Of a stretch of 64,000 nucleotides of DNA, positions 43,701-64,000 are shown in pieces. The stretch is from positions 8,952 to 72,951 of the forward strand of contig DAHUXZ010000006.1 of the NCBI GenBank assembly GCA_027315455.1. Direction: 5' to 3'. This DNA is from Thermoplasmata archaeon (GTDB lineage Archaea; Thermoplasmatota; Thermoplasmata; Lutacidiplasmatales; UBA184). The notes under the pieces are model-generated. The model did no database searches, was not told the origin of the DNA, and saw nothing but the letters and a program-made list of their open reading frames with translations. The translations under genes and the position numbers were made by a program. The stretch's first letter is position 1. Every line of letters starts with the position of its first letter.

Positions 43701-43709
43701 GGCGGGGGC

Positions 43710-44366
43710 TCACCCCTCCAAGGCCCGCAGGGCATCGGCGTCGACGTGGTCGAACGACTCCTTCATCCTCTCGAGGAAGATCCTGGCCACGATCGCAAGG
43801 ACGAGGAGGTTCGCCGCGAGGCCGAGCTCGACGAAGAGCCCTAGGCCGTACGTGAGGGCGATCCCGGCGAGGAAGATCCCGTTGTTCATCACCAAAAGGC
43901 CGACGACCTGGGTAATCGCCTTGCGTCGGGTGATCAGGAGAAAGAACCCGATCAATAGCACGGCCACGGAGATCGGCAACAGCCCGGCCGAAGGGACTTC
44001 CGCAAAGGGTGTGATCCCCCCGACGACCCAGACCGAGACGAGGAGGATTGCGAGCCCTGCCAACGCGCTCGCTCGGACGGAGGCGTACATGTTGACCATC
44101 CGGGAGACGCCGAGGTTCCGGACGACGCGACGCAGCAGCCATGGCAGCACGATCGCGTTGACGACAATCGTGAGTCCGGCGAGAACGTAGATGTCCGGTG
44201 CCTGGTACTGATACGCTACCAGGCCAGCGGTGATGCCGAGGGCGCCGGACTGGATCGCGTAGGTGTCGACGAGGGCCTCGATCCGCCGGTGGATGAGGGA
44301 GATCCACGCGGTAACCAGCACGATGGCGGCGGAGATGTCGAGGGCCTGGACCGCCAGCACGATCAT
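43710..44366 (-). CDS. HyfE-like small membrane subunit
   Basis: 218-aa polytopic membrane protein positioned as in hyf operons. Start overlaps the upstream stop. Confidence 0.55.
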   Translation of the reverse strand: MIVLAVQALDISAAIVLVTAWISLIHRRIEALVDTYAIQSGALGITAGLVAYQYQAPDIYVLAGLTIVVNAIVLPWLLRRVVRNLGVSRMVNMYASVRASALAGLAILLVSVWVVGGITPFAEVPSAGLLPISVAVLLIGFFLLITRRKAITQVVGLLVMNNGIFLAGIALTYGLGLFVELGLAANLLVLAIVARIFLERMKESFDHVDADALRALEG

Positions 44367-47391: not shown

Positions 47392-47575
47392 GGACCGGGG
47401 GTTCGCGCGGTCCCGTCAGGGAACGACCGACGGGGGGTCCGCGCCGGCGCAGTGCAACGGGACCATACGATGATGGAGGAGCCGGGCCAGGTCATCCCGA
47501 GGCGGTTGGGATAGTCTAAGACGGTCTGGACCGACTCCGATACGGTAATTACCCCTCCGGCGCCCTGTCTCACGC

Positions 47576-48712
47576 ATGGGCCCCACTCCGGAAGTCGAGC
47601 CGGCGTCGTCCTCCCCGCGGCGGCGTAGCCCGGCCGAGTTCCGCCGGCCCGGGGGGCCCTCCCGGCCGCCTCCGAGGCAGACCCCGAGGCATCTTCACCG
47701 ATCCGGGCCTCATACTCTCGCGGTCAGCCTCCCGAAATCTTGGATCGATGGGCACTCTCTCACCCGGGGGTCCGTGGTCTGGCTCCACTCGAGGGACGAC
47801 GGAAGACTGGTAGTCGCCCCGGCTAGCCCCGAGGGGGCGGGGCCGGCCGGGGATCGGGTGTTGACGATCGGTTCAAACCACTTTGGCGACCCCCAGGTCC
47901 TCGCTCGGACGGTCTTCGGCGGGTATGTGGTCGGGTATGACCGGATCGAACTCATCGACGCCGATGGATTCGACCGGGACCGGCGACAGGAGCTGGAGCG
48001 CACGGCCCACGCCTTTGTGGGGCTGCAGGTGGTGTTCCACGACACCCATCGTGTGACTTTGCAGAGCTTCCTGGACGCCCGTCGGCACACTGTCCCGAAG
48101 GTCTTGACCCGGGCGGGTCTGGTAGTGGAGGAGATGGCCCAGCTCCTCGCGGCGGCGGTCCGGGGTTCGTCCAAGGTGCCGATCAAGGAACTCGCGGCGA
48201 TGGAAGCGGAGTCCGACCGGCTGTATGCCCTGGCGCTGCGACAGCTCATGCTCGCGCAGGGCGACCCCGCGCTGGCTCGCCTATTGGATGTGCGAGAGCC
48301 TCGAGACCTTCTCGGGGGTCGGATCGTCGGCAAGATCTACGAAGAGATCGCGGACCTTCTCTGCAGAGCTGCGCCGGAGCTTCGGGCCGGCCTGGAAGGG
48401 CGGGAGCTGCCGGGTGCACTCCGGGCGGACCTGGTGGGCCATGTGGAGGCGCTCCGGACGATGGTGCAAGACTCCTCCCGCGCCCTCCTGAAAGAGGACA
48501 GCAATCTCGCCCACCGGGTTCTGCGCCATCGGGAGGACGGCCTCGAGGCGCTGCACCGAACCGAGCATCTCTTGGCGCGGGCCCGACTCCCCCGACGGCA
48601 AACCGCGTCGCTGGCAATCTTCGCGTGGGGGCTTGGGACCTCCCGTCGACTCTGCGGGACCATTGCCGAGGTCGCGCTCAACGAATCGATCCAATCGACG
48701 GCCACCGGGTAG
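47576..48712 (+). CDS. PhoU-family regulator with N-terminal AbrB/SpoVT-like domain
   Basis: TLAVSLPKSWIDGHSLTRGSVVWL swapped-hairpin domain followed by two PhoU-like repeats. ~45-aa Arg/Pro-rich N-terminal extension of doubtful reality. Confidence 0.65.
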   Translation: MGPTPEVEPASSSPRRRSPAEFRRPGGPSRPPPRQTPRHLHRSGPHTLAVSLPKSWIDGHSLTRGSVVWLHSRDDGRLVVAPASPEGAGPAGDRVLTIGSNHFGDPQVLARTVFGGYVVGYDRIELIDADGFDRDRRQELERTAHAFVGLQVVFHDTHRVTLQSFLDARRHTVPKVLTRAGLVVEEMAQLLAAAVRGSSKVPIKELAAMEAESDRLYALALRQLMLAQGDPALARLLDVREPRDLLGGRIVGKIYEEIADLLCRAAPELRAGLEGRELPGALRADLVGHVEALRTMVQDSSRALLKEDSNLAHRVLRHREDGLEALHRTEHLLARARLPRRQTASLAIFAWGLGTSRRLCGTIAEVALNESIQSTATG

Positions 48713-48902
48713 CACCGCACCCCCCGGGAAGGCCTCGAAAGATCACCGGGATCCGGACGAACTCCGTGATGGGGGCCATAACGCACGCATTCAGCTCGAC
48801 CTTTTCTGAAACGCAGTTGAGTCGCGAGGAATGAGCGGCCGCATGGTCGGATTCCCTGCGGCTTCAGGATTCTAGGGTCGCGGGCCGGGCTGGACATTGA
48901 AT

Positions 48903-50108
48903 CTAGTGGCGCGGCCACGAAAGAAGGTTGACCCTATCGGGGCCTGAGCCAGATCGGCATCTTGGCTCTGCGACGGTGGTCTTTGCGCACGGTGTCGCGG
49001 AACCGCTTCCCTCGCGCCTGTCGTTCTTCGTTCCGATAGCGGACCGCCGAGGCGAGCACTTCGCCCACGGCCTCAGGGGTCGTGTGCGTCTCCCCGGCCA
49101 TCGCCAGCTTCTGCAGATCCCCGGCGTGGCACTCCACCGGGTTCAGGTGACTCGCATGGGTGGGCGTTGAGAACAGCCGTACCTTGTTCGCCTTCGCCCA
49201 CTGACGGATCGCTGCCGTCCAGTGGTTGCTCGCCCCGTCCCAGATCAGGTTCACCCACTGGTCGGTGGGATACTCCGCCCGCACGTCCTTCAGATACTCC
49301 AGCCAGTTCGCCGCGTGCTTCGTTCGGTAGACCCGACCGAACAGCCGCTGGTGGAACACGTTCAGCGTGAGGAAGTAGTAGACCGTCCCGAACTTCCGCT
49401 CATACTCGGCGGGAATGCGCGCCGGGATCTTCTGAGGGAACCATCCCTCGCCTCCGTGGGGGATCAGTTGGATCGGTCCGATCTCATCCGCCGAGAGGAC
49501 CACCGGCGGATTGTGCCGCTTCCGAGTCAGCTGGTCGATCTTCCGCTTCTTCTCCTCGAAGAGGGGGTCTGGGGAGGTCTTCCAGGTGCGGATCGACTGG
49601 TGGGAGACCTCATCCTCGTGGAGGATCACGCGGAGCCACTCCTCGCTGATCGACTCTACGATGCCGCGTTTCACGGCCTGCTCCCGAAGGCGGGAGAGCG
49701 ACCACTGGGCGTAGGGTAGTTCGAGGTCGCGTGGTCGGCTGAGGGCGAGGTCGACCAGCGCCTTGCGCTGGTCGTCGGTGAACTTCGGGGGTCGGCCGGG
49801 CCCCCACTTCGGCTGGAGCATGGCCATCCCATGCTCGTTGAAGGCGCGGATCACCCCACGAATGTAGTCCTCGCTCGCCAGGGCGATGATGGTAATCCGA
49901 GGAGGGGTGTTCCCCTGGTAGCTCGCGAGCACGATCTGGGCGCGCTTGAACTCGATGGCGTTCTGCCCGTGGCGGACGATGTGACGGAGCTTCTGTCCTT
50001 CCTCGAGCGTTAGGTCACGGACCCGCAGGACCATGCCACCGGGATAGCGCAACCCCGGAAAGTACCATCGGTCCAAAGGTCAGGCAACTTTACCGGCCGC
50101 GCCACTAG
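48903..50108 (-). mobile_element. IS630 (Tc1/mariner)-family insertion sequence, ~1.2 kb
   Basis: Terminal inverted repeats CTAGTGGCGCGGCC (48903-48916) and its reverse complement GGCCGCGCCACTAG (50095-50108), with a partial match extending ~15 bp inward. Single DDE transposase inside. GC ~57%. Confidence 0.75.
48934..50076 (-). CDS. IS630-family transposase
   Basis: N-terminal HTH (RVRDLTLEEGQKL, KRAQIVL) and DDE_3 domain (...WDGASNHWTAA...). Non-ATG start in the ORF track; the true start may be the internal Met. Confidence 0.8.
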   Translation of the reverse strand: MDRWYFPGLRYPGGMVLRVRDLTLEEGQKLRHIVRHGQNAIEFKRAQIVLASYQGNTPPRITIIALASEDYIRGVIRAFNEHGMAMLQPKWGPGRPPKFTDDQRKALVDLALSRPRDLELPYAQWSLSRLREQAVKRGIVESISEEWLRVILHEDEVSHQSIRTWKTSPDPLFEEKKRKIDQLTRKRHNPPVVLSADEIGPIQLIPHGGEGWFPQKIPARIPAEYERKFGTVYYFLTLNVFHQRLFGRVYRTKHAANWLEYLKDVRAEYPTDQWVNLIWDGASNHWTAAIRQWAKANKVRLFSTPTHASHLNPVECHAGDLQKLAMAGETHTTPEAVGEVLASAVRYRNEERQARGKRFRDTVRKDHRRRAKMPIWLRPR

Positions 50109-51157
50109 GTCCGGGGAGCGCCGCACTTCGGGCAGACGGTCGCCGTGGTGTCGATGAGCGTCCCGCAGTAGCGGCAGTTGGTCTTGACCGTCTCCTGAAG
50201 GACGATCTGCTGGACCGGCGGCTGCGCCACCTGCCCGAGGCCGAGCGGCGGCGGGGACGGGAAGTTCGCGCGGTCGTAGGCGATCGTGCCCGGCGCCCCG
50301 TGACGGGGCAGCGTCGCGCCCCGTCGCCGGCGTCCCACGGCCCAGATCGCGACCACGACGACCAGGACGAGGACGAGCGCGCCGACGACGATCGTGGCGA
50401 CCTCGGCGACGTCGAGCCCCGCGGGAGGGGGCGGTGGCGGCGCCGCCGCCGGGGTGAGCGGGTAGCTCGTGCTGGTCGCCGCGAGCGTGTCGGTCCAGGT
50501 GAACCCGTCCCCCGTGCCATCGCGGTCGGTCTCGGTGTAGAGGTAGCCCACGATGTAGCCCGAGCCGGGGTCGAAGTACGCCTTCCAGGTGTACGTCGCG
50601 GTGAAGACGCCGTAGACGTCGTTGCGCTGGTAGGTGCCGTTGCCCTCGGCGAAGAGCGTCCGCACGTAGCCGGTGGGGCTCGAGGCCAGCGGGTAGGAGA
50701 CGTTCGTCCCCACCACCACGAGCTCGCTGTTGAGGACGTAGAAGCTCGCGCCGGGCCGGAGCGCGGAATCCATGTAGAACCAGACGTAGGGATCGACGTA
50801 CCCCGTCTGGTTGTCGGTCCCCTGGACGTAGTGGTACGTCGTCGGGGAGAACGTGAACGTCCCCTTAACGGGGACGATCTCGCTCTGGCCCGCGTTGCTG
50901 ACCCAATGGGTCACGCTCTGGTACGTGGTGTTCGCGGACCCGTTCGCGAGGAGGGAGGTGTCGTGGAGGCTGCCGTTGATGAAGGAGTGCTCGGTGTAGC
51001 CGGTGTAGTTGCCGACGCCGCCGTCGAGGACGATCGTCTCGGTGTAGGCCAGCTGGTCGCCGGCGTTTACCGCGCGCGGGAGCGGGCGGGCGACCGCCGC
51101 GGGAAGGAGGGCGAGGAAAAAGATCGCGGCGACGGCCAGCAGGCGTACCGCTCTCAT
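50105..51157 (-). CDS. predicted surface glycoprotein with signal peptide, C-terminal TM anchor and cytoplasmic zinc ribbon
   Basis: MRAVRLLAVAAIFFLALLPAA signal, many N-x-S/T sequons, TM (VATIVVGALVLVLVVVVAIW), then CRYCG...CPKCG. Start ATG overlaps the upstream stop. Confidence 0.5.
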   Translation of the reverse strand: MRAVRLLAVAAIFFLALLPAAVARPLPRAVNAGDQLAYTETIVLDGGVGNYTGYTEHSFINGSLHDTSLLANGSANTTYQSVTHWVSNAGQSEIVPVKGTFTFSPTTYHYVQGTDNQTGYVDPYVWFYMDSALRPGASFYVLNSELVVVGTNVSYPLASSPTGYVRTLFAEGNGTYQRNDVYGVFTATYTWKAYFDPGSGYIVGYLYTETDRDGTGDGFTWTDTLAATSTSYPLTPAAAPPPPPPAGLDVAEVATIVVGALVLVLVVVVAIWAVGRRRRGATLPRHGAPGTIAYDRANFPSPPPLGLGQVAQPPVQQIVLQETVKTNCRYCGTLIDTTATVCPKCGAPRT

Positions 51158-52680
51158 CCGGTGAACCCTCCGAACGCGTGGACGTGGCCCGGATGCGCGC
51201 CGGAGAACGCGCCATACGTGGAGAAGTAGTGCCCGTGGGCGACGAGGAGCGGGACCAGATACAGCCGGGGGCCGGGGGAGGGCGTCGGCGGGCCGGCCCC
51301 CGCCGGTCGGGCCGCGGCGGTGGCATCGTGCTCGTTGACGGAGGCGACCCGGATGCCGTGGAGGAGGCGGACGGCCAGGCAGAGCAGCTCGGGAGGGGGG
51401 ATCGGGCCGGTACGTCGGCCGAGGATGTCGTAGGCCCGCTCGAGGAGGGTGAGGGTCTCGTTCGCCTCGAGGACCGGGATCGCCGCGAGGATCGAGGCCG
51501 CCACGAGGGGATACTGGAGGTAGGTGCCGACCCCCCGCGCGATGATCGCGAGCTTCGTCCCGACCCCGGTGATGGGGAGGTCGGAGACGGTCAGGTACGC
51601 CGCCGAGAGCTCGACGTCCTCGCTCGGCTGATAGCCCCACATTCCGAACTGGGAGCGGGCCGCGACGAACTTCGCCGAGAGGTCGGCGAAGGGCGCGTTG
51701 ACGACCGACAGCAGCCCGGCGGCCTCGTACGAGCGGGTCAGCGCGAGGAAGGCGGGGAGGTTGGCGACGGCGAACGTCCCATCCTGGCGCTGTCCCGCGA
51801 GCAGGGTCGCCGCGACCGCGAGCGAGGATTCGGGGGGGACGCCGGTCGACGCGACGGACCGGTTCAGCTCGGCGAGAAGCGGAACGGTCTCGGAAAGGGG
51901 CCGAGCGAGCGTCGCGAGGATCTCCGCGCTGAGCAGGCGGTTCTCGGTGTTGGGGGTGAATGCCGCGACCTGTTCGTACGCCGAAAGGAACGTCGCCGCG
52001 GCCGTCGCGCCGTCGCTTCCCGACTTCGCGAGGCCGATCCCGACGGCCCACAGGTAGCTGCGGTCCACGCCGGGCAGGCGGGGCAGGAGCTGGCCGAAGA
52101 CGGCGCCGCCCGCGTCGGCGGTGCGTTCGAGCTCGGCGTCGACCCGCTGGCTATCGGCCCAGTAGGCCGAGAACTCCATGGCGGAGACACGGTAGGCCCG
52201 GACCTCGAGGTCGCGCAGCGCCATCGCCCCGAGCCCGGTGAGGGCCACGAACCCCCCGGCCGCCGGGACGAGGTTATCGAGGAGCGCCTTCTGCTGGACG
52301 AGGTCCGCGAACTGCGCTTCCCGGTCGCGCAGCTCGGCCTGCGCCGCCCGGAGCGCGGAGGCGTCGCCCGCGGCCTGGCCCTCCTCGGCGGCCCGTTTCG
52401 CCGCCCCTTCGAAACGAAAGAGGATCGAGTGCGTGTGGCGCTCCTCGGACCGGACCCGGGCCTGGAGCTGGGCGTACTCCGCCCCCTCGCGCTGGATCGT
52501 CTCCTGGGCGGAGCCCATGCCGCCCACGCGCGCCACGAGGGCCGCCCGATCCGCCGGGGAGAGCACCGCCACCAGCCGCGCGGCGGACAATTCCGTCAGG
52601 CCGGCCGGCGCGAGCTCCCCGGAGAGGGTGCGCGATCGCAGCCCGCTGAGGTACTGGAGGACCTCGGTGCAGGTCGTCAC
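51154..52680 (-). CDS. hypothetical alpha-helical/coiled-coil protein
   Basis: 508-aa ORF in operon arrangement (start overlaps the upstream stop) with protein-like composition. N-terminal coiled coil; no recognised motifs. Confidence 0.45.
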   Translation of the reverse strand: MTTCTEVLQYLSGLRSRTLSGELAPAGLTELSAARLVAVLSPADRAALVARVGGMGSAQETIQREGAEYAQLQARVRSEERHTHSILFRFEGAAKRAAEEGQAAGDASALRAAQAELRDREAQFADLVQQKALLDNLVPAAGGFVALTGLGAMALRDLEVRAYRVSAMEFSAYWADSQRVDAELERTADAGGAVFGQLLPRLPGVDRSYLWAVGIGLAKSGSDGATAAATFLSAYEQVAAFTPNTENRLLSAEILATLARPLSETVPLLAELNRSVASTGVPPESSLAVAATLLAGQRQDGTFAVANLPAFLALTRSYEAAGLLSVVNAPFADLSAKFVAARSQFGMWGYQPSEDVELSAAYLTVSDLPITGVGTKLAIIARGVGTYLQYPLVAASILAAIPVLEANETLTLLERAYDILGRRTGPIPPPELLCLAVRLLHGIRVASVNEHDATAAARPAGAGPPTPSPGPRLYLVPLLVAHGHYFSTYGAFSGAHPGHVHAFGGFTG

Positions 52681-52681
52681 G

Positions 52682-53884
52682 CTATCGGTCGACCAACGGG
52701 AAAATCGTATTTAGGGGTTCCTCCGAGAGGCGGTTCCGTATCTCGAGGGCCAGGCCCTCGGGGGTCTCCACCGGACGCGCGAACGGGTCGTCGCGCAGTG
52801 CCTCGCGGAGGACCGTCGCGAAGTGCTCTCGGCGGTCCCCGAGCGCAAGGAAGCGGCGGCGCCGCTCGGACTCGATCTGCTCGAAGGCGAACATGAACTC
52901 GTAGAGGGAACGGTACACCTGGTCCTCGAGCTTCTCCCGGACCTCCCTACGCTCCACGACGACCTCGTCGATCCCTTCGAGGTCGACGAAGTACGCCGCG
53001 CCGTCCGGGGCGAGGACCGCATCCTTGTCGAGCCAGACGTCGTGGAAGTCGAGGCCGCGATACCGGCCGGGCACCGCGTCGGGAGCGAGCGTGCGGGCGA
53101 ACAGGGTCAGCATCGCGACGACGCTCGCCACGAAGCGCAATTCGAAGGCCAGGGCGCGCGCGTTCGAGCCGATCCCGAACCGATCGAAGACCCATCGGAT
53201 GCTGTCGCCGACGGTCTGGCGGCCGTGGAAGTAGATGCGGACGTTCGACGGGACGAGCCGCAGCTCCTGGACGAACGGGCCGCGGTAGCGGCGGTACCAG
53301 TAGATCGACCGCAGGTCCTCCTCGAGCGACGGGGGAAAGCGGGCGATCTTGACCAGCGGGGCGAGCCGGAAGCCGGCGAGGCTGGTGAGGTCGGCCCGCT
53401 CGGAGACCGCGAGCGCCGTTCGGGCGTGCGCGAGCCCCTGCCCGCCGTACGGCGAGCCGCGCAGCCAGAGCTCCCCGGTGATCAGGCGCTCGGGTGCCGA
53501 ACCCGAAGCGGGCCCGAGGCGGTCCCGGACGGCCGGCGGACCGATCAGCGGACGGACCACGTCACGGTCGAGCCGCTCGGCGGCGAACGGGAGCACCTCC
53601 GAGCCGACGCCCTTGATGGAGAGGTAGAACGCCATTCCGTCCAGCGTCGCCGCCGGCTCGGGGAGGATCGCTCCCCGGTTGTCGTCCTCGATGAACTTTA
53701 ACCGGCCCGCGGACGGGCGGTCCATCAACCCCGCGAGGGCGGGGGGAAGGAAGAGCCGGTCGAGGTCCGAAAGGGGGTGTCCCGCGAACTGGCGGTTGGT
53801 GATCGTCTCGGCCGGGTACGCGTCCAGCCAGAGCGGGGTCCCGGGGAGTCGGTGGTCGACCGGCACTTCGCCCCGCGCGCTCAC
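52682..53884 (-). CDS. hypothetical protein, possibly kinase-like fold
   Basis: 400 aa. FHDVWLDKDAVLAPDGAAYFVDLEGI loosely resembles the catalytic-loop / Mg-binding (IDxE) region of APH/Kdo-kinase-like proteins. Inference only. Confidence 0.45.
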   Translation of the reverse strand: MSARGEVPVDHRLPGTPLWLDAYPAETITNRQFAGHPLSDLDRLFLPPALAGLMDRPSAGRLKFIEDDNRGAILPEPAATLDGMAFYLSIKGVGSEVLPFAAERLDRDVVRPLIGPPAVRDRLGPASGSAPERLITGELWLRGSPYGGQGLAHARTALAVSERADLTSLAGFRLAPLVKIARFPPSLEEDLRSIYWYRRYRGPFVQELRLVPSNVRIYFHGRQTVGDSIRWVFDRFGIGSNARALAFELRFVASVVAMLTLFARTLAPDAVPGRYRGLDFHDVWLDKDAVLAPDGAAYFVDLEGIDEVVVERREVREKLEDQVYRSLYEFMFAFEQIESERRRRFLALGDRREHFATVLREALRDDPFARPVETPEGLALEIRNRLSEEPLNTIFPLVDR

Positions 53885-54053
53885 CCGCCCCCCGCCGCGG
53901 CCCCCGACGCGATCGACGGCCCGTTCGACGCGATACCCGCAGCCCCCGGACTCGCGGGCATCGCACCCTCGGCGGGCCCTCGAGCCGGAGGAGCCCCAAA
54001 AGGGTTCCCCGGCAGGGCCCCGCCGCCGTCAGGTCCCCACGTCGCCCCGTGAG

Positions 54054-57000
54054 TCACCCGTCGCCGCGGCCCGAGGGGAACGCCTCGTGGAGGCGCGCGA
54101 AGGTCGTCGGGTCGACGAGGTCGGGGTTCACGGGGACCAGTATCCGGGCCCCCTGGTGCCGGGCCATGTCGGCGAGCCCCTCCAGGAAGGCCGCGGTCCG
54201 CTCGGCGGTGTGGATCCGCACCAAGTACTCCACTCCCTCGAGGTACGCGGCCTCGACCCCGCGCTCCCCGAACGCCCGGCGGAACAGCTCGGTGAGGGCG
54301 GCGAGGTCCGTCGGCGGGAACGACCCCTCCCGCCGGACGTTCGAAAGCCAGACGACCTCGACCGCGCGCGGTCCGAGGCTCGCCCGCAGGCGGTCGGGGA
54401 AGTCGCGGCTCAGGCAGAGCCCCCGACGCGGCAGCTCGGTCGCGGCCAGGAACTCCGACCAGGACGTCCCGGGGGAGCGTTCGGGCCAGACCTCGACCCC
54501 GGTTCTCGGTGGAAGGACGGCTGGCGCCGCGGGCGCGGGGGAGCGCACGGCGGCGGGGTCCGCGGGGGTCAGCGCCGGCAGGACCGGCGCGGGGGGGGCC
54601 GGAGCGGTGCCCGGCCCGATACCGGTGGGCTCGGCCGGGGCGGGGGGGACCCCTACGGGCGGGGGGAGGACGGGAACCGGCATCGGCGCCGTGCGGGGTG
54701 CCGCTCGCGGCGCGACGGGATCCTCCGCGGCCGCCTCCCCCTGCGGGGGTGCGGGGGACGGCGCGGCGGCGGGCGCCGGCCCTTGGGTGCCGGACGGGGC
54801 GCAGACGACGACGCGAGGACGGAGGGGGCGGGGTGGGGAGGGACCGCCGAAGTGCTCCACGAGAAGGGCGGCGACCTCGGGCCCGAACCCGGGGATAGGT
54901 GCCAGCCGCTCGAACGGCGCGTGGGCGATCTCCTCGTAGGAGCCTAGCCCCGCCTCCCAGGCCATCGCGAGCTTCGTCGGTCCGAGAACGGGACGGCGCA
55001 GCTCCGTGTCGAACGCCGTGACGGCGTCGCGGATCGCGGACTCGCGCGCCCTCAGGCTCTCATCGAGATAGTCGGTCCCTTCCCAGGCCGCCGGAGCGGG
55101 GGGCCGGGGGCGGACGCGGGGGCGCCGGTCGCGGCGGGGCCGGACCTTGTGCCGGGCCGGCGCGGCCGGTGCCCCGACGAGGACGCACCTCCATCGATCC
55201 CCACGCCGCGTCCGCCCCTCCACGCCCCATCCCTCGGGAACGGGCTCGCCGGACGGGACGAGCCGCACGGGGACGCCTCCGAACGCCGGGCCGAGCGACG
55301 GGAGGAGGCGCTCGAGCTCGGCCGCGAGGGGCCCCGAGATTTGGACGGCGATCTCCGACACCAGCGACGGCTGGGGAAGCCGACCGAGCTGGCGATGGAC
55401 CTCGCGGAAGAGCCGGAACCCGTCCGGCGTCAACGGAGGGGGGGCCCCGCCGGTGGCGTCCCCCGACGCCCCGGGCGGCCTAAGGAGCAGCTCGCCGAGC
55501 CGCCAGGGCACGGCGACGACCCCCTCGGGAAGCGACTCGGTAAGGTCGACCATCGTCGCGGCGATCGGGTACGGCAGCCCGTCGAGGACGACCTCGAGCC
55601 GTCCGTCCTTGAGCCCGTCCTGGATCTGGGTCCCGGTCAGCTGCTCGAGGAGACGGGCGATCCGGCCAGCGACCGGGCCGTAGCGGGCGCGGATCCGCTC
55701 CAGGTTCGGGCTCGCCTCGACCCGGCGGGCATCCCACGGTCGGGCGGGCGACGCGATCTGGACGGAGGCCGCCCCCGCGATGCGGGCCAGGATCTCCGGC
55801 CGATCCCGCACGAGGCCGGCCGTCTCCTCATCGTTCAGGTAGACCACGATGGGAGGCAGATCGGCGGACGGGGCGACCTTGAGCTCGCGGCGATATCGGG
55901 CGACGGCCGTCCGCAGCTCCCGCCATACGCCGTACGCCCGCTCCGCGTTCGCATCGAGGAGCGCCTCCTGGACCGGGGCGAACGTCCGCTCGAAGACGCT
56001 CTCGTGATCGCCCCGCAGCGCGCGGTGGATCGCCTCCATCGTGAACGGAAGGATCGGGGCGGAAAGCTCGACCCAGCGCGGCAGGACGTGACCGAGGACG
56101 TTGAGCGCCGCGGCCTTCCCCGAGCTCGGCCCGGCCGACGCAAGGCGCGGCCCCGCGAGCGGCAGGTATCCGGCCCGCAGGTCCTCCTCCATGAACTGCG
56201 CGAGGCGCTCGTGCGCCGCGGCGAGCTCGCCCCGGTCGTAGAGGCGCAGGACCTCGAGCCGCATCCGCTCGAACAGGGAGAGGAACGCCCGGTCCTCCTC
56301 GGTCAGGCCCTCGAGCGGGCGGGTCACGACCGCCGCGTCCGGGTCGAAGCGCTCGGCGGCGAACCGCTCGAGGATCTCCCGGGCCGTCTCCCAGCTCTTG
56401 CGCAGGCGGCGATCCTCCTGCTCGCGGCGGTTGACGAGCGTGAGCTCCCCGTTGCGGGGCGCGCGCTCGGTGAGGAGGAGCGCGGCCCGCAGCGCATCGG
56501 CCGACTCCCCGAGGCCCGGCCGGGCCGGGACCTCCGAGCTCGGAAGGGTCGGGATCGTGGCGACCTTCAGCTCTTTCGGGTCGGCGTCGACCGCCTCCAT
56601 CGCGAGGAGGTGGTGGACCAGGGCGGGCGCCCGGCGTCGCTCGGGAAGGTAGAGCCAGGCCGAGTCGGCCGGGGCGACGGGGGCCGCGGCCGCCCAGGCC
56701 ACGACGGCGGCGTGGACCGGCGGAAGCAGATGCCGCCGGGAGACGAGGCGTACCCCGCCGCACCCGCAGCGATCGGGGGCGTCGGACGGGGCGAGCTCCC
56801 CGCACGACTGGCATTCGGAGAGCGCCGGGGCGTCCGGCTCGGAGGTGATCTCCCCGGCGCTCACGGGCCAAGGGACCACCTCCGACGCGCCGACCTCCGG
56901 TGCGTCGGGAAGGAGGCGCTGGTAGAGCGCCGTTCGCTGGGGGGAAAGGCGGTTCGGCGCGAGGCACCACGCCCGCCCGACGTCCCAGTGGAGGGCCGAG

Positions 57001-58097
57001 CCGCAGGTGACGCAGTGCGGAATGCCCCGTCGGACCCGGAGCTGGGCGAACAGGAGCCCGCTCTCCGTGACGTCCCGGAGGACGAACGCCTCGGCGTCCT
57101 CCAGCGTGAGCCGCTGGTACTTGTGCGCGACGTCCTCGGTCAGGCGCCCGCTCAGGTCGGCGACGGACCAGCCGGGGATCCCGAGCGCCGCGGCCGCGTG
57201 GTAGTCGGCCGCCCCGTGGGCCGGAACGAGCGCGATGACCCCGGTGCCGGAGTCGCCGACCTCCGCCGACGCGAGCACGGTCCCGGCGGGCGGGGGGAGG
57301 TTCGCGAGAACGGGGGACTCCATGGCCAGCGGATGGACGTAGGCCGTCCCCGCCCACCGGCGGCCGGGCGCCTCTTCGAGGACCTCGATCTCGGCGCCGT
57401 CGAGCCACTGGATGACCCGGTCGATCGCGGACCGTAGGATGACGATCCGTTCCTCGACCCCGCGCCGGCGGTAACGGGCCGTGACGTAGGGCATCGTCGG
57501 GTGGACGAGGATCGCCGTCGTCCCGAGGAGCTTCCAGAGCGAGTCGGTCCAGACGAGGAGGCTCGTCCGGGGCGGCGCGCCGGCGATCGGAAAGCGGACG
57601 AGGTACGCCGGTCCCGGCGCCTCGGCATAGACGATCCCCTCAGGGCTCCGGGGGAGGCGGCAGGACGGGCAGGTCCGAAGCGGCGTCGACCGGCTCACCA
57701 GGAGCCGACGGGCCGCGAGACGATCCACGACCTCCTGAAGTCGCTGCGGCCCGACCGCTTCGGTGAGGGGGCGCACACGGCCCCCCTCGGTCGCGATCCC
57801 CGCGCGACGCAGGAGGGGCAGCACACCCTCCCCCGCCGACCCCTGGTCCACCATCCAGAGCGTCCCGCGCGGTCGCGCCCCCGCCTGCGCGAGGTAGCGG
57901 GCCCCGGCATCGGCGGCCACGGCACGGGCGAGGACCTGGGCGGCGGGGTCAGCGGCCGCTACGGTCCCGGGGAACTGGAGGACCCGGGGTTCCCCCCCTT
58001 CCCCGTCACGGGCGAATAGATTGGGTCGGGAGGCCCAGAACAGCCAGGCCTCGGATTCGATCGCCGCGGGGTCGTAGCGTGGGGAGAGAAGGTGCAT
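54054..58097 (-). CDS. giant fusion protein: degenerate class-Ia aminoacyl-tRNA synthetase (IleRS/ValRS-like pseudo-synthetase) + HhH motif + uncharacterised C-terminal domain
   Basis: Class Ia landmarks are retained in degenerate form: the HIGH region reads DPAAQVL, WTTTPWT reads WTDSLWK, the editing-domain motif reads GTGVIALVPAHGAADY, HCWRC reads HCVTCGS, and no KMSKS is present. After ~aa 1000: HhH (LAPIPGFGPEVAALLVEHFG), a Pro/Ala-rich linker, and a ~150-aa domain (GLCLSRDFP...VVWLS...LEGVEYLV...ILVPVNPDL). Confidence 0.6.
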   Translation of the reverse strand: MHLLSPRYDPAAIESEAWLFWASRPNLFARDGEGGEPRVLQFPGTVAAADPAAQVLARAVAADAGARYLAQAGARPRGTLWMVDQGSAGEGVLPLLRRAGIATEGGRVRPLTEAVGPQRLQEVVDRLAARRLLVSRSTPLRTCPSCRLPRSPEGIVYAEAPGPAYLVRFPIAGAPPRTSLLVWTDSLWKLLGTTAILVHPTMPYVTARYRRRGVEERIVILRSAIDRVIQWLDGAEIEVLEEAPGRRWAGTAYVHPLAMESPVLANLPPPAGTVLASAEVGDSGTGVIALVPAHGAADYHAAAALGIPGWSVADLSGRLTEDVAHKYQRLTLEDAEAFVLRDVTESGLLFAQLRVRRGIPHCVTCGSALHWDVGRAWCLAPNRLSPQRTALYQRLLPDAPEVGASEVVPWPVSAGEITSEPDAPALSECQSCGELAPSDAPDRCGCGGVRLVSRRHLLPPVHAAVVAWAAAAPVAPADSAWLYLPERRRAPALVHHLLAMEAVDADPKELKVATIPTLPSSEVPARPGLGESADALRAALLLTERAPRNGELTLVNRREQEDRRLRKSWETAREILERFAAERFDPDAAVVTRPLEGLTEEDRAFLSLFERMRLEVLRLYDRGELAAAHERLAQFMEEDLRAGYLPLAGPRLASAGPSSGKAAALNVLGHVLPRWVELSAPILPFTMEAIHRALRGDHESVFERTFAPVQEALLDANAERAYGVWRELRTAVARYRRELKVAPSADLPPIVVYLNDEETAGLVRDRPEILARIAGAASVQIASPARPWDARRVEASPNLERIRARYGPVAGRIARLLEQLTGTQIQDGLKDGRLEVVLDGLPYPIAATMVDLTESLPEGVVAVPWRLGELLLRPPGASGDATGGAPPPLTPDGFRLFREVHRQLGRLPQPSLVSEIAVQISGPLAAELERLLPSLGPAFGGVPVRLVPSGEPVPEGWGVEGRTRRGDRWRCVLVGAPAAPARHKVRPRRDRRPRVRPRPPAPAAWEGTDYLDESLRARESAIRDAVTAFDTELRRPVLGPTKLAMAWEAGLGSYEEIAHAPFERLAPIPGFGPEVAALLVEHFGGPSPPRPLRPRVVVCAPSGTQGPAPAAAPSPAPPQGEAAAEDPVAPRAAPRTAPMPVPVLPPPVGVPPAPAEPTGIGPGTAPAPPAPVLPALTPADPAAVRSPAPAAPAVLPPRTGVEVWPERSPGTSWSEFLAATELPRRGLCLSRDFPDRLRASLGPRAVEVVWLSNVRREGSFPPTDLAALTELFRRAFGERGVEAAYLEGVEYLVRIHTAERTAAFLEGLADMARHQGARILVPVNPDLVDPTTFARLHEAFPSGRGDG

Positions 58098-58922: not shown

Positions 58923-59555
58923 TCACGGGCAGCTCCGGAGGGTGAGGCAGGGATTGAGCGAGACGTGGATGGCGAGCACCCTCGGCACCGCTCGGCTGCC
59001 CAGGTCGAGGAACAGGTCCAAGTGGACGATCTGCGCGGCCGGGGAGCGCCCGGACCCGCTCGAAAAGTAGCCGTGGAAGATGGTCCATCCGCCCGTCGTC
59101 TCGACACCGACCTCGATGTCGAAGGAGAACGGAGCGCCCAGGCGCGACGGCTGAAGGTAGGAGATCACCAGCTCTTCGGCATACGTTCCCGCCACCAGGG
59201 TGGACGGGGCCGCCGAGCGGTAGCCGTCCGTGCACGGGCCGACCCGGCAGGCCGCGACGCGGACCGTTGCGCCGCTCAGACCGAGCGTCCCCGCGGTCTG
59301 CCGACCCGCGGTAGGGAACGTGGACGTCGCTTTGGTCAGGAGGACGATCCCGAGGCCGATCTGGGAGATCGGCGGAGGGCTCGCCCCTTGGGCCATCGCG
59401 AGAGCGGACGGGGAGGCGGCGAGCTGGGTGACGGACGTCGACGCATGGGCGGGCGTCGGAAGAAGAAGTATCAGGACCAGGAACGAGAACGCCGCTGCGA
59501 GGAGACGGGAGGCGGGGCCGGCCCGGTGCCGCGGATGCGCTGGGTGACGACTCAT
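58923..59555 (-). CDS. secreted protein, paralogue of 59700-60326, ending in a Cys-x5-Cys-Pro motif
   Basis: Hydrophobic signal-like N-terminus (LLAAAFSFLVLILLLPTPAHA), Ser/Thr/Gly/Ala-rich body, C-terminal NPCLTLRSCP. Confidence 0.45.
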   Translation of the reverse strand: MSRHPAHPRHRAGPASRLLAAAFSFLVLILLLPTPAHASTSVTQLAASPSALAMAQGASPPPISQIGLGIVLLTKATSTFPTAGRQTAGTLGLSGATVRVAACRVGPCTDGYRSAAPSTLVAGTYAEELVISYLQPSRLGAPFSFDIEVGVETTGGWTIFHGYFSSGSGRSPAAQIVHLDLFLDLGSRAVPRVLAIHVSLNPCLTLRSCP

Positions 59556-59699
59556 GAGGGGTTCACCGCCGGGTTCTTGCGCGGAGGGTGGCCGGTAGGG
59601 AGGGTCGGTGCGGCGAGGGCGGGGAAGGGGTGGGCGAGGAAGGGGTTCGCGTCGCCGGCATCGGATGTCGGCGGGTCCGTGGGTCCGGCGGGACGGGAC

Positions 59700-60326
59700 C
59701 TACGGGCAGGCCGTCGCGCTCGCGCACTGGTTGAAGATCACCGACACCGAGTTGATCACCGGGGCCGAGCTCGTCCCGAGGTCGATGAAGACGAACACGG
59801 GGACGGCCGAGGTCGTCGCGACGCCGGTCGCGCCGGTCGCGAGGTAGGCGAGCGCCGTCACCGTCGTGGTCGTTACACCGACGGTGATCGAGATCGTGAA
59901 CGCCATGTCGAAGCCGACGCTCGTCCCGGTACCCGCGGGCTGGGTGACGGTCATGGCGATCTGCTCGCCATAGTTACCGGTCGTCTCCGTCGCCGGGCTG
60001 GCCGAGATGAAGTTCCCGGCCGGGCACGGGGTCGTCGCGCAGGCGGCGAGCGCGGCCGGCGTACCCGAGAGGCCCACGGCGCCGCTCGTCTCGCTGCCGC
60101 CGGCGGTGGCCGTCGCCATTCCCGTCGAGAGCACCACCAGTTGCTCCGAAGTGATCGAAGCGATACCGGAGAATCCCCCCGGGGTCGGGCTCTGGGTCAC
60201 GTTCGTCGCCTGCTGGGGGCTCAGGGTCGTGACGGTGGTCGCGGCGAGGGCGTAGCCCCCGATCATCGCGATCATCGCGGCGGCCGTCACGGCGTAGACG
60301 AGGCGTTGCTTGCGCTTTGTCGCCAT
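59700..60326 (-). CDS. secreted protein with KRK-hydrophobic-GG signal peptide, Thr-rich body and C-terminal Cys-x5-Cys-Pro
   Basis: MATKRKQRLVYAVTAAAMIAMIGGYALAATTV then a Thr/Ser/Ala/Gly-rich sequence ending NQCASATACP. Start at internal ATG with GGGGGAG upstream. Confidence 0.5.
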   Translation of the reverse strand: MATKRKQRLVYAVTAAAMIAMIGGYALAATTVTTLSPQQATNVTQSPTPGGFSGIASITSEQLVVLSTGMATATAGGSETSGAVGLSGTPAALAACATTPCPAGNFISASPATETTGNYGEQIAMTVTQPAGTGTSVGFDMAFTISITVGVTTTTVTALAYLATGATGVATTSAVPVFVFIDLGTSSAPVINSVSVIFNQCASATACP

Positions 60327-60357
60327 CGGTTGTCTCTCCCCCTCGGGGGAATTGCGA

Positions 60358-60375
60358 ATACGCATCGATGCGTAT
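60358..60375. promoter_or_regulatory. perfect 18-bp palindrome ATACGCATCGATGCGTAT overlapping a TATATA box upstream of the secreted-protein gene
   Basis: Exact self-complementary 18-mer. TATATA at 60373-60378 lies ~47 bp upstream of the ATG at 60326 on the minus strand. Confidence 0.4.
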
Positions 60376-60550
60376 ATACACTTATTCATCCCGATTGTGC
60401 ATGCGCGGCGTATAACTCGGGGCGCGCCCGCCGTGGTGGGGCGCGCGGGGTGCCCGGACGCCGTCCCGTCCGCCGGTTTCCCCCGACCGGCGTGCCGCCG
60501 CGGGACAACCCTTATCAAGCCCGGCACGTCCTCGGTGGCGGAAGATTGCC

Positions 60551-60937
60551 ATGGCCTGGACGCAGCAGGAAGTTCGCGAGCTCAAGGAAGGCCGCTACAT
60601 GCTCATCGATGACGAGCCCTGCAAGATCCTCAGCATCCAGACCTCGAAACCGGGAAAGCACGGCGAGGCGAAGGCCCGCATCGACGCCGTCGGCGTCTTC
60701 GACGGGTCGAAGCGGAGCGTCGTCTTCCCCGTGAAGCACAAGGTCCAGGTCCCGATGATCGGCAAGCGCCAGGCCCAGGTGCTCTCGCTCACCGACACCG
60801 AGGTCCAGCTGATGGACCTCGAGACCTACGAAACGTTCTCGCTGGCCCTGGAGGCAGAGCTCAAGGGTCAGCTTTCCCCCGGGGGAGAGGTCCAGTACAT
60901 CGATGCCATGGGGAAGCGTCGGATCAGCCGCCCGTAG
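60551..60937 (+). CDS. eif5a: translation initiation factor 5A (aIF-5A)
   Basis: Hypusine-loop region [13 protein letters not shown] and SH3-like plus OB domains. Confidence 0.9.
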
Positions 60938-61094
60938 GCGGGCCCGGCCGCCGCGTGAGCCATCTTTTATATCGCCGGGACGGCATGTTTGCCGGCGCGG
61001 GCCCCCTCCCATCGGGCGTCGGGCCTAGTTCCTCGGGGGGGCGAAGGCCACGACGGGCTCCGGCGGCATCGGAACGCTTCCCTCCTCTCGCCTG

Positions 61095-64000
61095 ACGAGG
61101 ATCCTCCAGGAGAAGGCCGAGCTGCTCAAGAAGCAGCGGCAGAGCGCCGAGGTCGCCCAGCGGGAGGCGGACGAACGGGCCCAGCTCCTCTCCGCCCTCG
61201 ATATCCATCTACCGGAAGCGGCCGACCGCGAGCAGGCCGTCCAGGCCCTCGCTCGCCGCTCGGACTGGGAGGCCGTCGAAGCCCAGTCCCGGGCCTATCT
61301 CGACTACCTCGACAAGGCCGGTCGGCCGGAGGCCGACGCGGTCCGCGGGCGCCTCCTCGAGCGTGCGGCGCAGCTACCCGCGAGCGGAGTCCCCCTGCCG
61401 CCGGCGGTCGCGGCGCTCGTGGACGCGGCCGATCCCGGGCCCGCCGCCGATGAGAAGGCCCGTCTCGAGGGTCTCCTCCGCCTGAAGGAGGCGCTGACCG
61501 GGGTCGAGGGCGAGTTCGCCCGACGGGTCCGGGGCCTGGCCGGAGCGCTGGCCGACTGGGCCGGCGAGCCGCGGGACTCCCGGGGGGACCTGGACTCCCG
61601 GCTCGAGGAGGCGCTCGCTCCCCTCCAGGACGGTCACGCGAAGGAGGCGATCGGGCGGCTTTACGCCGCCGTGCGGGCCGCGGTCCCGCTCGCCCGCGCC
61701 CGCCACGACACGGCCGTGGAGACCGGCCGCAGCATCGCCGCCGTCGCGAAGGACCTGGGATCGCCGACGGAGGACCTCGAGGAGGCCCTCGCCGCGGACG
61801 CGGCCGCGAGCCCCCTCGACTGGCCGGAGAGCGTTGCGAAGCTCGAGCGGGCGAACACGCAGGCCGGGGACGCGCTGCGCGAGCGGGTGGGAGCGACCCT
61901 GGCGGGGCTTCGCACCACGCTCGAATCGCTGCGCGAGCTCGGTGTCGACCCGGAGGACGCGCTGGTGAGCCTCGAGGAGGTCGCGGCGCAGGTGCCGGGA
62001 GCCGCGACCGCTGACATCCCCCGCCTGCTCACCGCCGCCCGGAACGCGACCGAGGAACCGGTGGTCGCGGTCGTGGCGAGCCTGCTCGACGGCGTGCGGC
62101 CGCGCCTGGTCGAGGCCCGCCGTCTCGGCCGGGACGCGAGCGAGGTCTTCGCGGCGATGAACCGCGCGCGCGAGGCGCTGCGGCTGCGCATCTACTCCGA
62201 GGCCCTCGCCGCCAGCCAGGAGGCGATGGACCGGGTCGGCCAGATCACCGCCGACCTCGACTCCACCCGGGAGGAGGCCGATTCCCTCGCGCGCCTCCTC
62301 GAGCGGCTGGGGGCGGCCCGGTTCCCGACCGGCTCCCATCTCGACCGCCTGGCCCGGGCCCGCGAGAAGCTCGACCGCCTGGACCTCGAGGGAGCGCGCA
62401 CCGCCCTCCAGGAGGGGGTGCGGATCCTCGGCGAGGAGGCCGCGCAGCACTTCACCCGGAAGCTCGAGGAGGTCGGCCGCATCCTCCCGGTGGCGGGGGA
62501 GCGGGGGTTCCTCCCGGCCGACGCCGACCGGGAGTTCGATCGGGTGCGCACGCTCCTCGACGAGGGGATGATCGCCGACGCGGGCGAGCAGCTCGCGGCG
62601 CTCGAGGTGCGCCTGCGCGCGGCTGCTGGGCCGTTCATCGCCCGTCGCGTCGAGGAGCTCGAGAAGGGGTTCGTCGACATCCCGGACGAGGGGCTGGTCC
62701 AGCCGGTCCGGCGACTGCTCGCCGACGCGGACGTGAACCTGCGGGTCAAGGAGGACCTGCCCGCCTCCTTGGACAGCCTCAAGCGCGCCGAGCGGGAGTT
62801 CTCCGCGATCTTCGCCGCGCACGCCTCGTCGCTCGTCGAGATGCTCGAGGACGAGCGCCGGTCCCTCGAGGCGATGGGCGGCACCGGCGACGAGATCCAG
62901 CGGCAGATCGACGAGGTCCAGCAGATCTTCAACATGGGGGATTTCGTCAAGGCCTCGCGCGCGTCGCAGGAGATCCGCGCGCGCGTGCACCAGCAGCAGC
63001 TCGTCCGCACCGAGGACGAGATCTCCCATGCCAAGCTCTCGCTGGTCGAGCTCGCGAAGATGGGCGTCGAGGCCGGGGCGCTGCGCACGTCGCTCGAGCA
63101 GGCCCAGGGCTCGGCCGCCGCCCAGCGGTACGCCGAGGCGTACCGAACCGCGTACGAGACCCTGGCGGGCGCGGGCCGCCTCAAGTCCCAGGCCCAGTCG
63201 ATCCTCGACGGGCTCGCCGAGGCGAACGACCTCTGGCAGAACCTCAAGAGCGCCGGCGGCGCGGCCGACGCCTATCGCGAGAAGATCCGGCTCACGAAGG
63301 TGGCGTACCAGGCGCTCGACTTCGACGGGGCGAAGGAGACCCTCGAGATCCTCCTCGCCCTCCTCAAGAGCGAGCAGGCGAACGCGGAGACGCGCCGCCT
63401 CATCGGCGAGTGCGACCTATTGCGCGAGGACGCCCAGCGCCTCTCCGCGCCCACGGAGGAAATCGCCGTCCGGATCGCGGAAGCGCGGACGGCGCTCGAC
63501 GAGGGGCGGTCGGCCGAGGCCCTCACGAAGGCCCGCACGGCCCACGCCGAGATCCACGCGCTCCTCCGGCCGGTCCTCACGGAGAACCTCCGCGGGCTCG
63601 AGCGGGACTACGAGATCGCGCAGGCCGCCGGCCTCGAGGTCTCCTCGGCCCTCGAGCTGCTCGGTGAATCGCGCCGGCGCCTCGCGCTGCCGGTGCCGAC
63701 CGGCGTCGCCGAGCTCCTCGAGAGCGCGCGGAGCCGCCTGGTCGAGACCCGCGGGTTCCTGGAGCACGCCGAGCGCGCCGCCCGGCGGGCGCGGGAGGCC
63801 GTGAGCGAGGCCGAGCTCGTCCGGGCCCCGGGGGTCGACGCGGCCCGGCAGCAGCTCGCCGAGGTCGAATCCGCGCTCAAGAAGCGGGCGTACGCCCGGA
63901 CCGTCGAGCTCGCCGGCACCGTCGAGCGGGAGACGCTCCAGGTCGTCTACCAGCAGGTGTCGAAGACGCTCGCCGCGTTCCAGGGGGTGGTCTCCCGGAC
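61095..64000 (+). CDS. large coiled-coil / alpha-helical protein (>950 aa), 3' end beyond window; N-terminal boundary uncertain
   Basis: One plus-strand frame is open from 61029 to the window end. E/L/A/R-rich, Pro/Gly-poor and heptad-like. Absent from the ORF track because it has no stop. The first canonical in-frame start is GTG 61419, but protein-like coding (MRILQEKAELLKKQRQSAEVAQ...) begins at an ACG at 61095. Confidence 0.45.

Follow-up and report, generated by a model that had tools for sequence, protein, structure and literature searches.

A putative pseudo-isoleucyl-tRNA synthetase fused to a helix-hairpin-helix and DUF835 tail in Thermoplasmata archaea

The subject of this work is a gene for a protein of 1347 amino acids (aa) found on the minus strand of a 64,000-nucleotide stretch of DNA from a Thermoplasmata archaeon of the UBA184 lineage (GenBank assembly GCA_027315455.1, contig DAHUXZ010000006.1, positions 8,952 to 72,951 of the forward strand). 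This whole stretch is referred to below as the window. It is a translation-rich piece of core genome that encodes ArgRS, the ribosomal proteins L1, L10/P0 and L15e, aIF2alpha, Nop5, Trm56, FtsY, the DRG and YchF GTPases and the products of purB and purF, and it holds no tRNA genes. The protein is very probably a catalytically dead paralog of the isoleucyl-tRNA synthetase (IleRS) of Thermoplasmatota type, extended at its C terminus by a module of a helix-hairpin-helix (HhH) domain and an inactivated KaiC-like domain (iKaiC, annotated as DUF835). It is called pseudo-IleRS in what follows, and its domains are set out in Table 1.

The open reading frame (ORF) is a genuine, conserved archaeal gene. 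A first-pass annotation, made by a model from the sequence alone, had proposed a single frame of 1347 aa, and this holds good: the frame begins with ATG and has a third-position GC content (GC3) of 0.90, matching the genuine genes of this 73% GC window. Searching for homologous proteins gave 71 clusters of full length, 35-50% identical to the 1347-aa protein and each with Anticodon_1 and DUF835. They come from Thermoplasmata metagenome-assembled genomes (MAGs), where they go by the names "class I tRNA ligase family protein" and "DUF835 domain-containing protein"; the databases hold only such automatic names for the family. Intact ORFs of 1320-1814 aa are present in these clusters and in at least 80 genomes of a species-level collection. 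The number of genomic loci is a lower bound, and the synteny counts given below are among the 80 loci listed. The same annotation had allowed for an artifact in which two genes are fused by a frameshift. This was looked for and is rejected, because about 70 homolog clusters share the fused architecture, and an archaeal origin of the pseudo-synthetase/DUF835 fusion is likewise supported. In several long-read MFD MAGs (L007 10001-15180; L058, L073, L079 and L080), the gene lies in two or three ORFs, for example one of 1453 aa and a 246-aa DUF835 ORF, which most likely reflects assembly indels and not true splitting of the gene.

The recognition of an IleRS-type fold, also part of the first-pass annotation, is borne out by several comparisons. 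The top NCBIfam models for the protein are ileS (TIGR00392; 9e-34, 116.7 bits, below the cutoff of 621.4) and valS (96 bits, with a cutoff above 600). Alignment by hhalign of a 27-member family profile with bona fide IleRS gave a probability of 99.3 over 803 columns (aa 2-856), and the nearest PDB sequences found by phmmer are the IleRS CP1/editing structures 1ile and 1wk8. An AlphaFold2 (AF2) model of aa 1-1000, built with 41 homologs in the alignment, has a mean predicted local distance difference test (pLDDT) score of 87 and a predicted template modeling score (pTM) of 0.81. Its top Foldseek matches in the PDB are the type-2 IleRS structures 8c9d/8c8v of Priestia megaterium (E 1e-46, template modeling score 0.62), with ValRS and LeuRS coming after the IleRS structures, and the alignments to 8c8v, in which the C-terminal tRNA-binding domain is included, and to the yeast IleRS-tRNA complex 8wnd run to about 1100 columns. 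The order of domains (Rossmann, CP1, anticodon bundle, C-terminal domain) is that of IleRS according to hhalign, Foldseek and the Pfam Anticodon_1 match (5e-18), and aa 1 to about 985 are predicted to form a complete type-2 IleRS fold. Pfam DUF5915 has no match in the 1347-aa protein itself and does match related fused proteins. The eight cysteines of the zinc knuckles are all invariant or nearly so across the family.

What has been lost is the charging site. Alignment with true IleRS places AAQV of the 1347-aa protein at the HIGH position, which varies among family members; the first-pass annotation was correct in calling HIGH degenerate, and the letters that it gave, DPAA, are two residues off and equally degenerate. 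Its statement that KMSKS is absent is confirmed by the alignments and by a table of motifs compiled across relatives, in which the entire loop is deleted. The motif DQxRGWF, which binds isoleucine and the adenylate, is exchanged in every member for a family-specific ERRRxPALVHH, and two Rossmann segments, GWDxHGLPxE (~46 aa) and DWxxSRxRxWGxP (~20 aa), have been deleted. These losses are found in the 1347-aa protein and throughout the approximately 70 homolog clusters. Because HIGH, the KMSKS loop and DQxRGWF are lost family-wide, the protein is regarded as a pseudo-enzyme, one that keeps the type-2 body (zinc knuckles, CP1, anticodon bundle and C-terminal domains) and is predicted to be unable to make Ile-AMP or to charge tRNA. 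At the level of sequence, the earlier description therefore stands: a pseudo-synthetase derived from IleRS, degenerate in HIGH, KMSKS and the editing motifs and unlikely to charge tRNA.

The CP1 domain has been remodeled. The change from WTTTPWT to WTDSLWK noted at first pass is real, and across the family the Thr-rich peptide has become W-T-D-x-x-W-K/R-L-L-G, with Asp-185 (D185) invariant. The GTG loop, the HG pair and D298 of CP1 are also invariant, and the editing His is gone family-wide; D298 presumably corresponds to the Asp that anchors the amino group of the substrate during editing by IleRS. Conservation is strikingly uneven between domains. CP1 is the best-conserved domain, with 61 of its 260 positions conserved at 95% or above; the N-terminal Rossmann half has 4 such positions among 125 and is conserved least of all the IleRS domains. 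Of the residues that are invariant in active archaeal IleRS, 47% are retained in CP1 and 33% in the anticodon bundle, compared with 13% in the first half of the Rossmann domain and 16% in the second. Such a pattern would fit selection on roles of the CP1 pocket and of the tRNA-side domains, and not on amino acid activation.

The Pro/Ala-rich linker, HhH motif and C-terminal DUF835 of the first-pass annotation, the last of which had been offered tentatively, were all recovered. Pfam DUF835 (PF05763) matches aa 1223-1337 at 7e-16, with 58.7 bits against a gathering score of 33.1. The match to HHH_5 (aa 1039-1082; 0.0027, 18.6 bits, cutoff 27) is sub-threshold in the 1347-aa protein; several members of the family, and the active fused IleRS described below, score above that cutoff. 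In an AF2 model of the C-terminal 360 residues (pLDDT 84), a compact helical HhH domain at aa 1013-1083 (pLDDT ~95) and an alpha/beta domain at aa 1200-1340 (pLDDT ~95) are separated by a disordered linker (aa 1090-1195), the length of which is highly variable across the family. The DUF835 domain has an alpha/beta fold of KaiC/FlaH/RecA type, and its best fold matches are KaiC-like (PH0284, FlaH and KaiC). A Walker A motif, GxxxxGK[ST], was looked for in this domain and not found, the first strand-loop reading GLCLSRDFPDR (family consensus GLCxxRExPER). A short search that used just the DUF835 domain as query gave nothing beyond fragments. DUF835 figures in a published list of the iKaiC domains that serve archaeal response regulators as output modules (PMC5847659), and KaiC-like ATPases have been proposed as regulatory hubs in archaea, according to work cited in PMC10983859.

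Table 1. The pseudo-IleRS gene, the parts of its product and other features of the window, with positions given in the window and aa numbers in the protein.
Feature	Position	Strand	Basis or remark
Whole gene, 1347-aa pseudo-IleRS-HhH-iKaiC protein	54054..58097	-	ATG start; stop codon 54054-54056
Degenerate Rossmann first half, aa 1-125	57723..58097	-	AAQV at HIGH position; ~46-aa GWDxHGLPxE segment deleted
CP1 (editing) domain and zinc knuckle C143/C146, C362/C365, aa 126-385	56943..57722	-	PDB phmmer matches 1ile, 1wk8
Second zinc module C429/C432/C444/C446 and degenerate Rossmann second half, aa 386-560	56418..56942	-	alignments
Anticodon-binding helical bundle, aa 561-745	55863..56417	-	Pfam Anticodon_1 5e-18 (aa 602-747); valS/ileS match region
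C-terminal domains resembling the tRNA-binding C-terminal domain of type-2 IleRS (DUF5915 region), aa 746-985	55143..55862	-	Foldseek
Arg/Lys-rich basic segment, aa 986-1012	55062..55142	-	read from sequence; low pLDDT
Helix-hairpin-helix, (HhH)2-like domain, aa 1013-1090	54828..55061	-	Pfam HHH_5 sub-cutoff; AF2 helical domain
Disordered Pro/Ala-rich linker, aa 1091-1195	54513..54827	-	pLDDT 53-70, no secondary structure
DUF835, inactivated KaiC-like (RecA-fold) domain, aa 1196-1347	54057..54512	-	no Walker A; strand-loop GLCLSRDFPDR
aIF5A, divergent upstream neighbor	60551..60937	+	Pfam IF5A-like_N, eIF-5a; context, not proven functional partner
Conserved ~1500-aa protein, 5' part (cut by window end)	61029..64000	+	tblastn matches in 73 loci
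IS5-like DDE transposase, left bound of insertion	37893-39224	+	IS630 transposase forms right bound
Mrp/Nuo-type antiporter subunits inside insertion	42228-43709, 44366-45433, 45328-47415		
PhoU+AbrB protein inside insertion	47576-48712		
KaiC-like ATPase	19437-20231	-	Pfam KaiC 5.7e-56; 35 kb from pseudo-IleRS
Weak KaiC-like 195-aa ORF	18849-19433	-	flanks KaiC-like ATPase
HerA/TrwB-like AAA protein, 847 aa	20235-22775	-	flanks KaiC-like ATPase

The tail is more widely distributed than the pseudo-enzyme, and probably older. An exhaustive phmmer search over 1.84 billion representative proteins found 104 at E<=1e-30, and below them lies a second tier of proteins of 1230-2330 aa at 21-28% identity, which come from Thermoplasmata/Thermoplasmatota archaea and are named isoleucine--tRNA ligase. 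All six of the second-tier proteins that were scanned contain tRNA-synt_1, Anticodon_1, DUF5915, an HhH domain (replaced by a zinc ribbon in, for example, P0154) and DUF835; some of them add a zinc ribbon or TPR. When a canonical Thermoplasmata IleRS was used as the query, HHH_5 and DUF835 turned up on many bona fide Methanomassiliicoccales IleRS (~1380-1430 aa), and the 1228-aa enzyme of Ca. Sysuiplasma acidicola proved to have DUF835 attached directly. The first-pass annotation knew of no characterized synthetase paralog with this architecture. It has no characterized counterpart in the literature that we searched, but it is not unique, as apparently active IleRS of Methanomassiliicoccales, Ca. 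Sysuiplasma and other Thermoplasmatota share the tail. The search proposed at first pass, for the same fusion and its neighbors in other genomes, thus found a fusion that is widespread in Thermoplasmatota, and it is catalytic decay that distinguishes the present family.

The motif table divides the fused proteins into those with intact HxGT, xMSKS, DQTRGWF, WTTTPWT and GTGxVHxAPGHGxxD (P0148, P0154, P0160, P0168, P0171, P0314 and others), those that are partly degenerate (P0150, P0155, P0165, P0169, P0170 and P0191) and those that are fully degenerate (P0164, P0173, P0179, P0182, P0201, P0206, P0212 and the family of the 1347-aa protein). In a neighbor-joining tree, all of the degenerate proteins form one group nested inside the fused Thermoplasmatota IleRS, and a CP1 change common to them, D/E-x-W-K-L-L, points the same way. 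The HhH-DUF835 tail would then have arisen first on an active enzyme and been retained after catalysis was lost, and its retention past that point would tie its role to the biology of IleRS and tRNA(Ile).

Canonical IleRS of Thermoplasmata MAGs with ~70% GC (the P0178 group, loci L082-L085) is without DUF835 and keeps all catalytic and editing motifs; its locus, near pdxS, differs from that of pseudo-IleRS. These enzymes end in a long Lys/Ala-rich tail (KKAAKKATRK...) at the place where sister orders carry HhH-DUF835; the Lys/Ala-rich tail has the look of an add-on for binding tRNA non-specifically. No canonical IleRS was found in the window or among the 80 loci listed, and P0072, the best match to a "true IleRS," was set aside as bacterial.

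The 80 loci come from soil and peat and include the UBA184 and SubAcS/AcS genomes that define the order Lutacidiplasmatales; their titles name Thermoplasmata or Thermoplasmatales MAGs in every case but one (L074, a "bacterium"). The gene for aIF5A divergently adjoins that of pseudo-IleRS in 74 of them, with a median gap of ~137 bp, and is followed in 73 by the gene for a protein of ~1500 aa, which is present at full length at L007 4790-9337 (-). This protein (c1) and the other conserved neighbors c2, c4, c10 and c13 have no match in Pfam, NCBIfam or the PDB sequences. In the window, two small ORFs (58926-59699 and 59703-60581, both on the minus strand) that have no Pfam match and are shared only with locus L001 separate pseudo-IleRS from aIF5A.

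Pseudo-IleRS belongs to the core genes that one archaeal order has inherited vertically. The first-pass annotation had placed it in an accessory island; such an island, or a mobile system, is rejected on synteny and core-gene context, since the gene occupies a conserved core locus beside aIF5A and the insertion bounded by insertion sequences (IS), at 37.9-50.1 kb, excludes it. The 10-kb block of exclusively minus-strand genes described there ends at about 60.5 kb. From 60551 to 64000, the genes are on the plus strand, as marked by GC3 and by cross-genome tblastn, and the minus-strand ORFs at 60.5-64 kb (61374-63029, for instance) are shadow ORFs of the kind typical of very high-GC DNA. Three genes without a family match follow pseudo-IleRS on the same strand (52685-54028, 51157-52710 and a protein with a C-terminal zinc ribbon ending at 50105). 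They do not form a conserved operon with it, as the genes at 50105-54028 are syntenic in only about 7-10 of the loci and the downstream genes vary.

The IS630 element noted nearby at first pass is present, with its transposase at ~48934-50079 (-). It bounds on the right a segment, 37893-50079, of low GC content (0.64-0.68, versus ~0.73 elsewhere). In six related loci, the GNAT gene and the zinc-ribbon gene that flank the segment adjoin each other, so that it looks like a composite-transposon-like insertion. An IS630-like transposase (cluster c23; e.g. L063 11556-12641) also lies downstream of pseudo-IleRS in six related genomes, in three of them between the c4 and c10 genes. As the copy in the window is in the downstream region too, this recurrence suggests an insertion hotspot.

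Loci of more distant relatives are arranged differently. Of the low-GC pseudo-IleRS-DUF835 genes at L095 (P0212), L091 (P0206), L093 (P0173) and L094 (P0164), those of three lineages have a gene for an ApbA-like reductase following them, and among the other neighbors are genes for an AspRS-like class II synthetase, aIF5A, a MiaB-like radical-SAM enzyme and archaeosine TGT. At L091, aIF5A is ~1 kb from the very distant P0206, and upstream at L095 is a gene for a protein longer than 1080 aa that combines HHH_5, a double zinc ribbon and TPR.

Our preferred reading, to which we give a probability of roughly 35-40%, is that pseudo-IleRS, having given up catalysis, binds tRNA(Ile) or senses tRNA and is coupled to signaling of KaiC type. 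A tRNA, most likely tRNA(Ile), would dock via the retained anticodon-side domains and present its 3' end to the conserved, remodeled pocket of CP1, where it would be read or held rather than charged. The basic segment and the HhH domain may add non-specific affinity for nucleic acid, and the long disordered linker would tether the tRNA-binding unit to the iKaiC domain. The latter might oligomerize or dock onto KaiC-type ATPase hubs, like other archaeal inactivated-KaiC output domains, and the KaiC-like ATPase of the window is one possible docking partner. No sequence similarity was found between the weak KaiC-like ORF beside that ATPase and the DUF835 tail. The logic would be akin to that of the HisRS-like tRNA-sensing domain of GCN2, and the term "tRNA-sensing" used at first pass is a reasonable hypothesis. 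Support comes from the translation-related locus, with aIF5A next door and genes for ribosomal proteins, aIF2alpha, ArgRS, Trm56 and Nop5 in the window; the aIF5A neighborhood is suggestive.

A number of points weigh against this reading. The C-terminal domain of pseudo-IleRS, where tRNA would be expected to bind, keeps just 1 of 13 IleRS-invariant residues. The aIF5A neighborhood may simply be synteny inherited within one order: aIF5A is absent at three of the four distant pseudo-IleRS loci and at two loci of active fused IleRS, and the neighbors seen at loci without it are ApbA, an AspRS-like gene, archaeosine TGT or a MiaB-like gene. No conserved KaiC-like partner is found beside the gene, the sole KaiC-like ATPase of the window being 35 kb away, and we know of no DUF835 domain with a demonstrated function. 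The grouping of the degenerate proteins in the neighbor-joining tree is possibly a product of long-branch attraction. Furthermore, the canonical-IleRS assemblies examined are not among the 80 loci, so that the presence of canonical IleRS and pseudo-IleRS in the same genome is a presumption.

The conservation of CP1, with its invariant GTG loop, HG pair and amino-group-binding D298, and the retention of the anticodon-binding domain would also suit a trans-editing factor, in which CP1 hydrolyzes mis-acylated tRNA (Val-tRNAIle or other) and the dead body only delivers it. We consider this unlikely, because the Thr-rich peptide is altered, its Thr having given way to the invariant D185, the editing His is lost family-wide, and other degenerate clades are without even the Asp. 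Editing of Val-tRNAIle in trans would moreover be redundant beside a canonical IleRS like that of the P0178 group, which has a complete editing site (WTTTPWT and TGLVHTAxGHGxED), and the iKaiC tail would be left unexplained. Another possibility is a scaffold or tRNA chaperone that senses nothing. It would hold or sequester tRNA(Ile), perhaps while the anticodon is modified or to keep a reserve, or would anchor translation factors or other synthetases in a complex, with the iKaiC domain serving only to oligomerize it. This makes the same predictions as the sensor model on sequence data alone; it is rather unlikely, and the neighbors vary between lineages.

The tail might instead direct the protein to DNA, making it a DNA-binding regulator or a repair accessory with the IleRS body as ligand sensor. 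An HhH domain followed by a RecA fold mirrors the order in Rad51/RadA, Foldseek aligned yeast Rad51 over 336 columns, and the HhH domain has weak sequence matches to Pol X and DNA ligase. Such a role is nonetheless very unlikely: 100-560 disordered residues lie between the HhH and RecA-fold domains, the best folds are KaiC-like and not recombinases, Walker A is missing, and the same tail is found on housekeeping IleRS. The gene belongs to the core genome and has no defense or repair neighbors, and nothing supports the suggestion made at first pass of a nucleic-acid-targeting system in the sense of a defense island. Extremely unlikely, finally, is either a still-active IleRS with unorthodox motifs or a functionless, decaying pseudogene. 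Archaeal IleRS do tolerate motif variants (HxGT, PMSKS and QMHKS in the motif table), but in pseudo-IleRS the motifs are absent and not variant, the KMSKS loop and two Rossmann segments being deleted and DQxRGWF replaced. Decay is argued against by an ORF that is intact in at least 80 species and by strong domain-specific conservation.

Taken further, the reading of pseudo-IleRS as a tRNA(Ile)-binding or -sensing protein leads to a wider and more doubtful scheme, in which Thermoplasmatota wired IleRS into KaiC-type signaling by means of the HhH-iKaiC tail. The duplicate, in Lutacidiplasmatales and several other lineages, would have become a non-catalytic sensor of tRNA(Ile) charge or identity, an analog of GCN2 that keeps a KaiC-like hub, and perhaps aIF5A, informed of amino acid/tRNA status.

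Non-catalytic paralogs of synthetases such as GCN2, HisZ and ThrRS-ed have in each case brought to light a mechanism of regulation or quality control. The present pseudo-IleRS is a conserved protein of 80 or more species-level genomes, some of them from the soil archaeal order Lutacidiplasmatales. Neither a synthetase coupled to a KaiC-like domain nor a class I, IleRS-derived pseudo-enzyme is described in the literature searched, and nothing relevant was found there on IleRS paralogs, KaiC fusions or the IleRS of Methanomassiliicoccales. Methanomassiliicoccales includes cultured methanogens of the human gut and rumen and has apparently active relatives of the protein with the same tail; a link between tRNA(Ile) and KaiC signaling is therefore testable in the laboratory. 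If true, it would give a first functional handle on DUF835/iKaiC, a recurrent output domain of archaeal response regulators. A note of caution also follows for annotation, as the proteins to which these MAGs give the name "class I tRNA ligase family protein" are not synthetases. The protein is of interest to specialists in aminoacyl-tRNA synthetases and in archaeal signaling, its function being one that we infer. No paper on a pseudo-enzyme derived from IleRS, or on IleRS fused to KaiC/DUF835, was found in a search that did not cover the iKaiC-fusion catalog of Makarova et al. 2017 (mBio), which may list an IleRS fusion.

Among known systems, the type-2 IleRS (Priestia megaterium IleRS2, 8c8v/8c9d; yeast IleRS-tRNAIle, 8wnd) have the same whole-chain fold over ~1000 residues and the same order of domains as pseudo-IleRS. 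The latter is 15-16% identical to them and differs in being without HIGH, KMSKS and DQxRGWF, in the deletion of two Rossmann segments, in its remodeled editing pocket and in its extra tail of 360 aa. Closer in architecture, and of the same phylum, are the IleRS-HhH-DUF835 fusions of Methanomassiliicoccales (P0293, P0306, P0314 and P0321) and the IleRS-DUF835 protein of Ca. Sysuiplasma acidicola (MBX8637091.1, P0171). Pseudo-IleRS matches the fused Thermoplasmatota IleRS in the order of IleRS body, HhH, linker or zinc ribbon and DUF835, and does not share their intact catalytic motifs: those proteins keep HxGT, xMSKS, DQTRGWF, WTTTPWT and GTGxVHxAPGHGxxD, look active, have ~21-28% identity to it and lie in other neighborhoods. 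No experimental study of them was found in the literature searched.

The HisRS-like domain of GCN2 is a non-catalytic, synthetase-derived domain that is fused to a signaling module, binds uncharged tRNA and reports amino acid supply. By analogy only, pseudo-IleRS is also synthetase-like, devoid of catalytic motifs and fused to another module. GCN2 differs in its class II HisRS origin and its protein kinase effector, whereas pseudo-IleRS is of class I IleRS origin, has no kinase domain and is only proposed to bind tRNA. Crenarchaeal ThrRS-ed is a synthetase paralog that keeps the editing and anticodon-binding parts and has lost catalysis, and AlaX and ProX/YbaK are free-standing editors. Compared with these, pseudo-IleRS has altered editing motifs, the presumed canonical IleRS (the P0178 group) keeps editing, and the iKaiC tail has no counterpart. 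HisZ, an inactive class II synthetase paralog, is the histidine-sensing subunit of ATP-PRT and has a regulatory, ligand-binding role. It too is a catalytically inactive paralog that has been retained, but it has neither tRNA-binding extensions nor a signaling tail. At the other end of the protein, the REC-DUF835 response regulators, ArlH/FlaH and PH0284 have the same DUF835/KaiC-like RecA fold, which in DUF835 is without a P-loop (PMC5847659). In pseudo-IleRS, unlike the REC-DUF835 proteins, this domain is attached to the body of a synthetase and not to a receiver, PAS or transmembrane domain.

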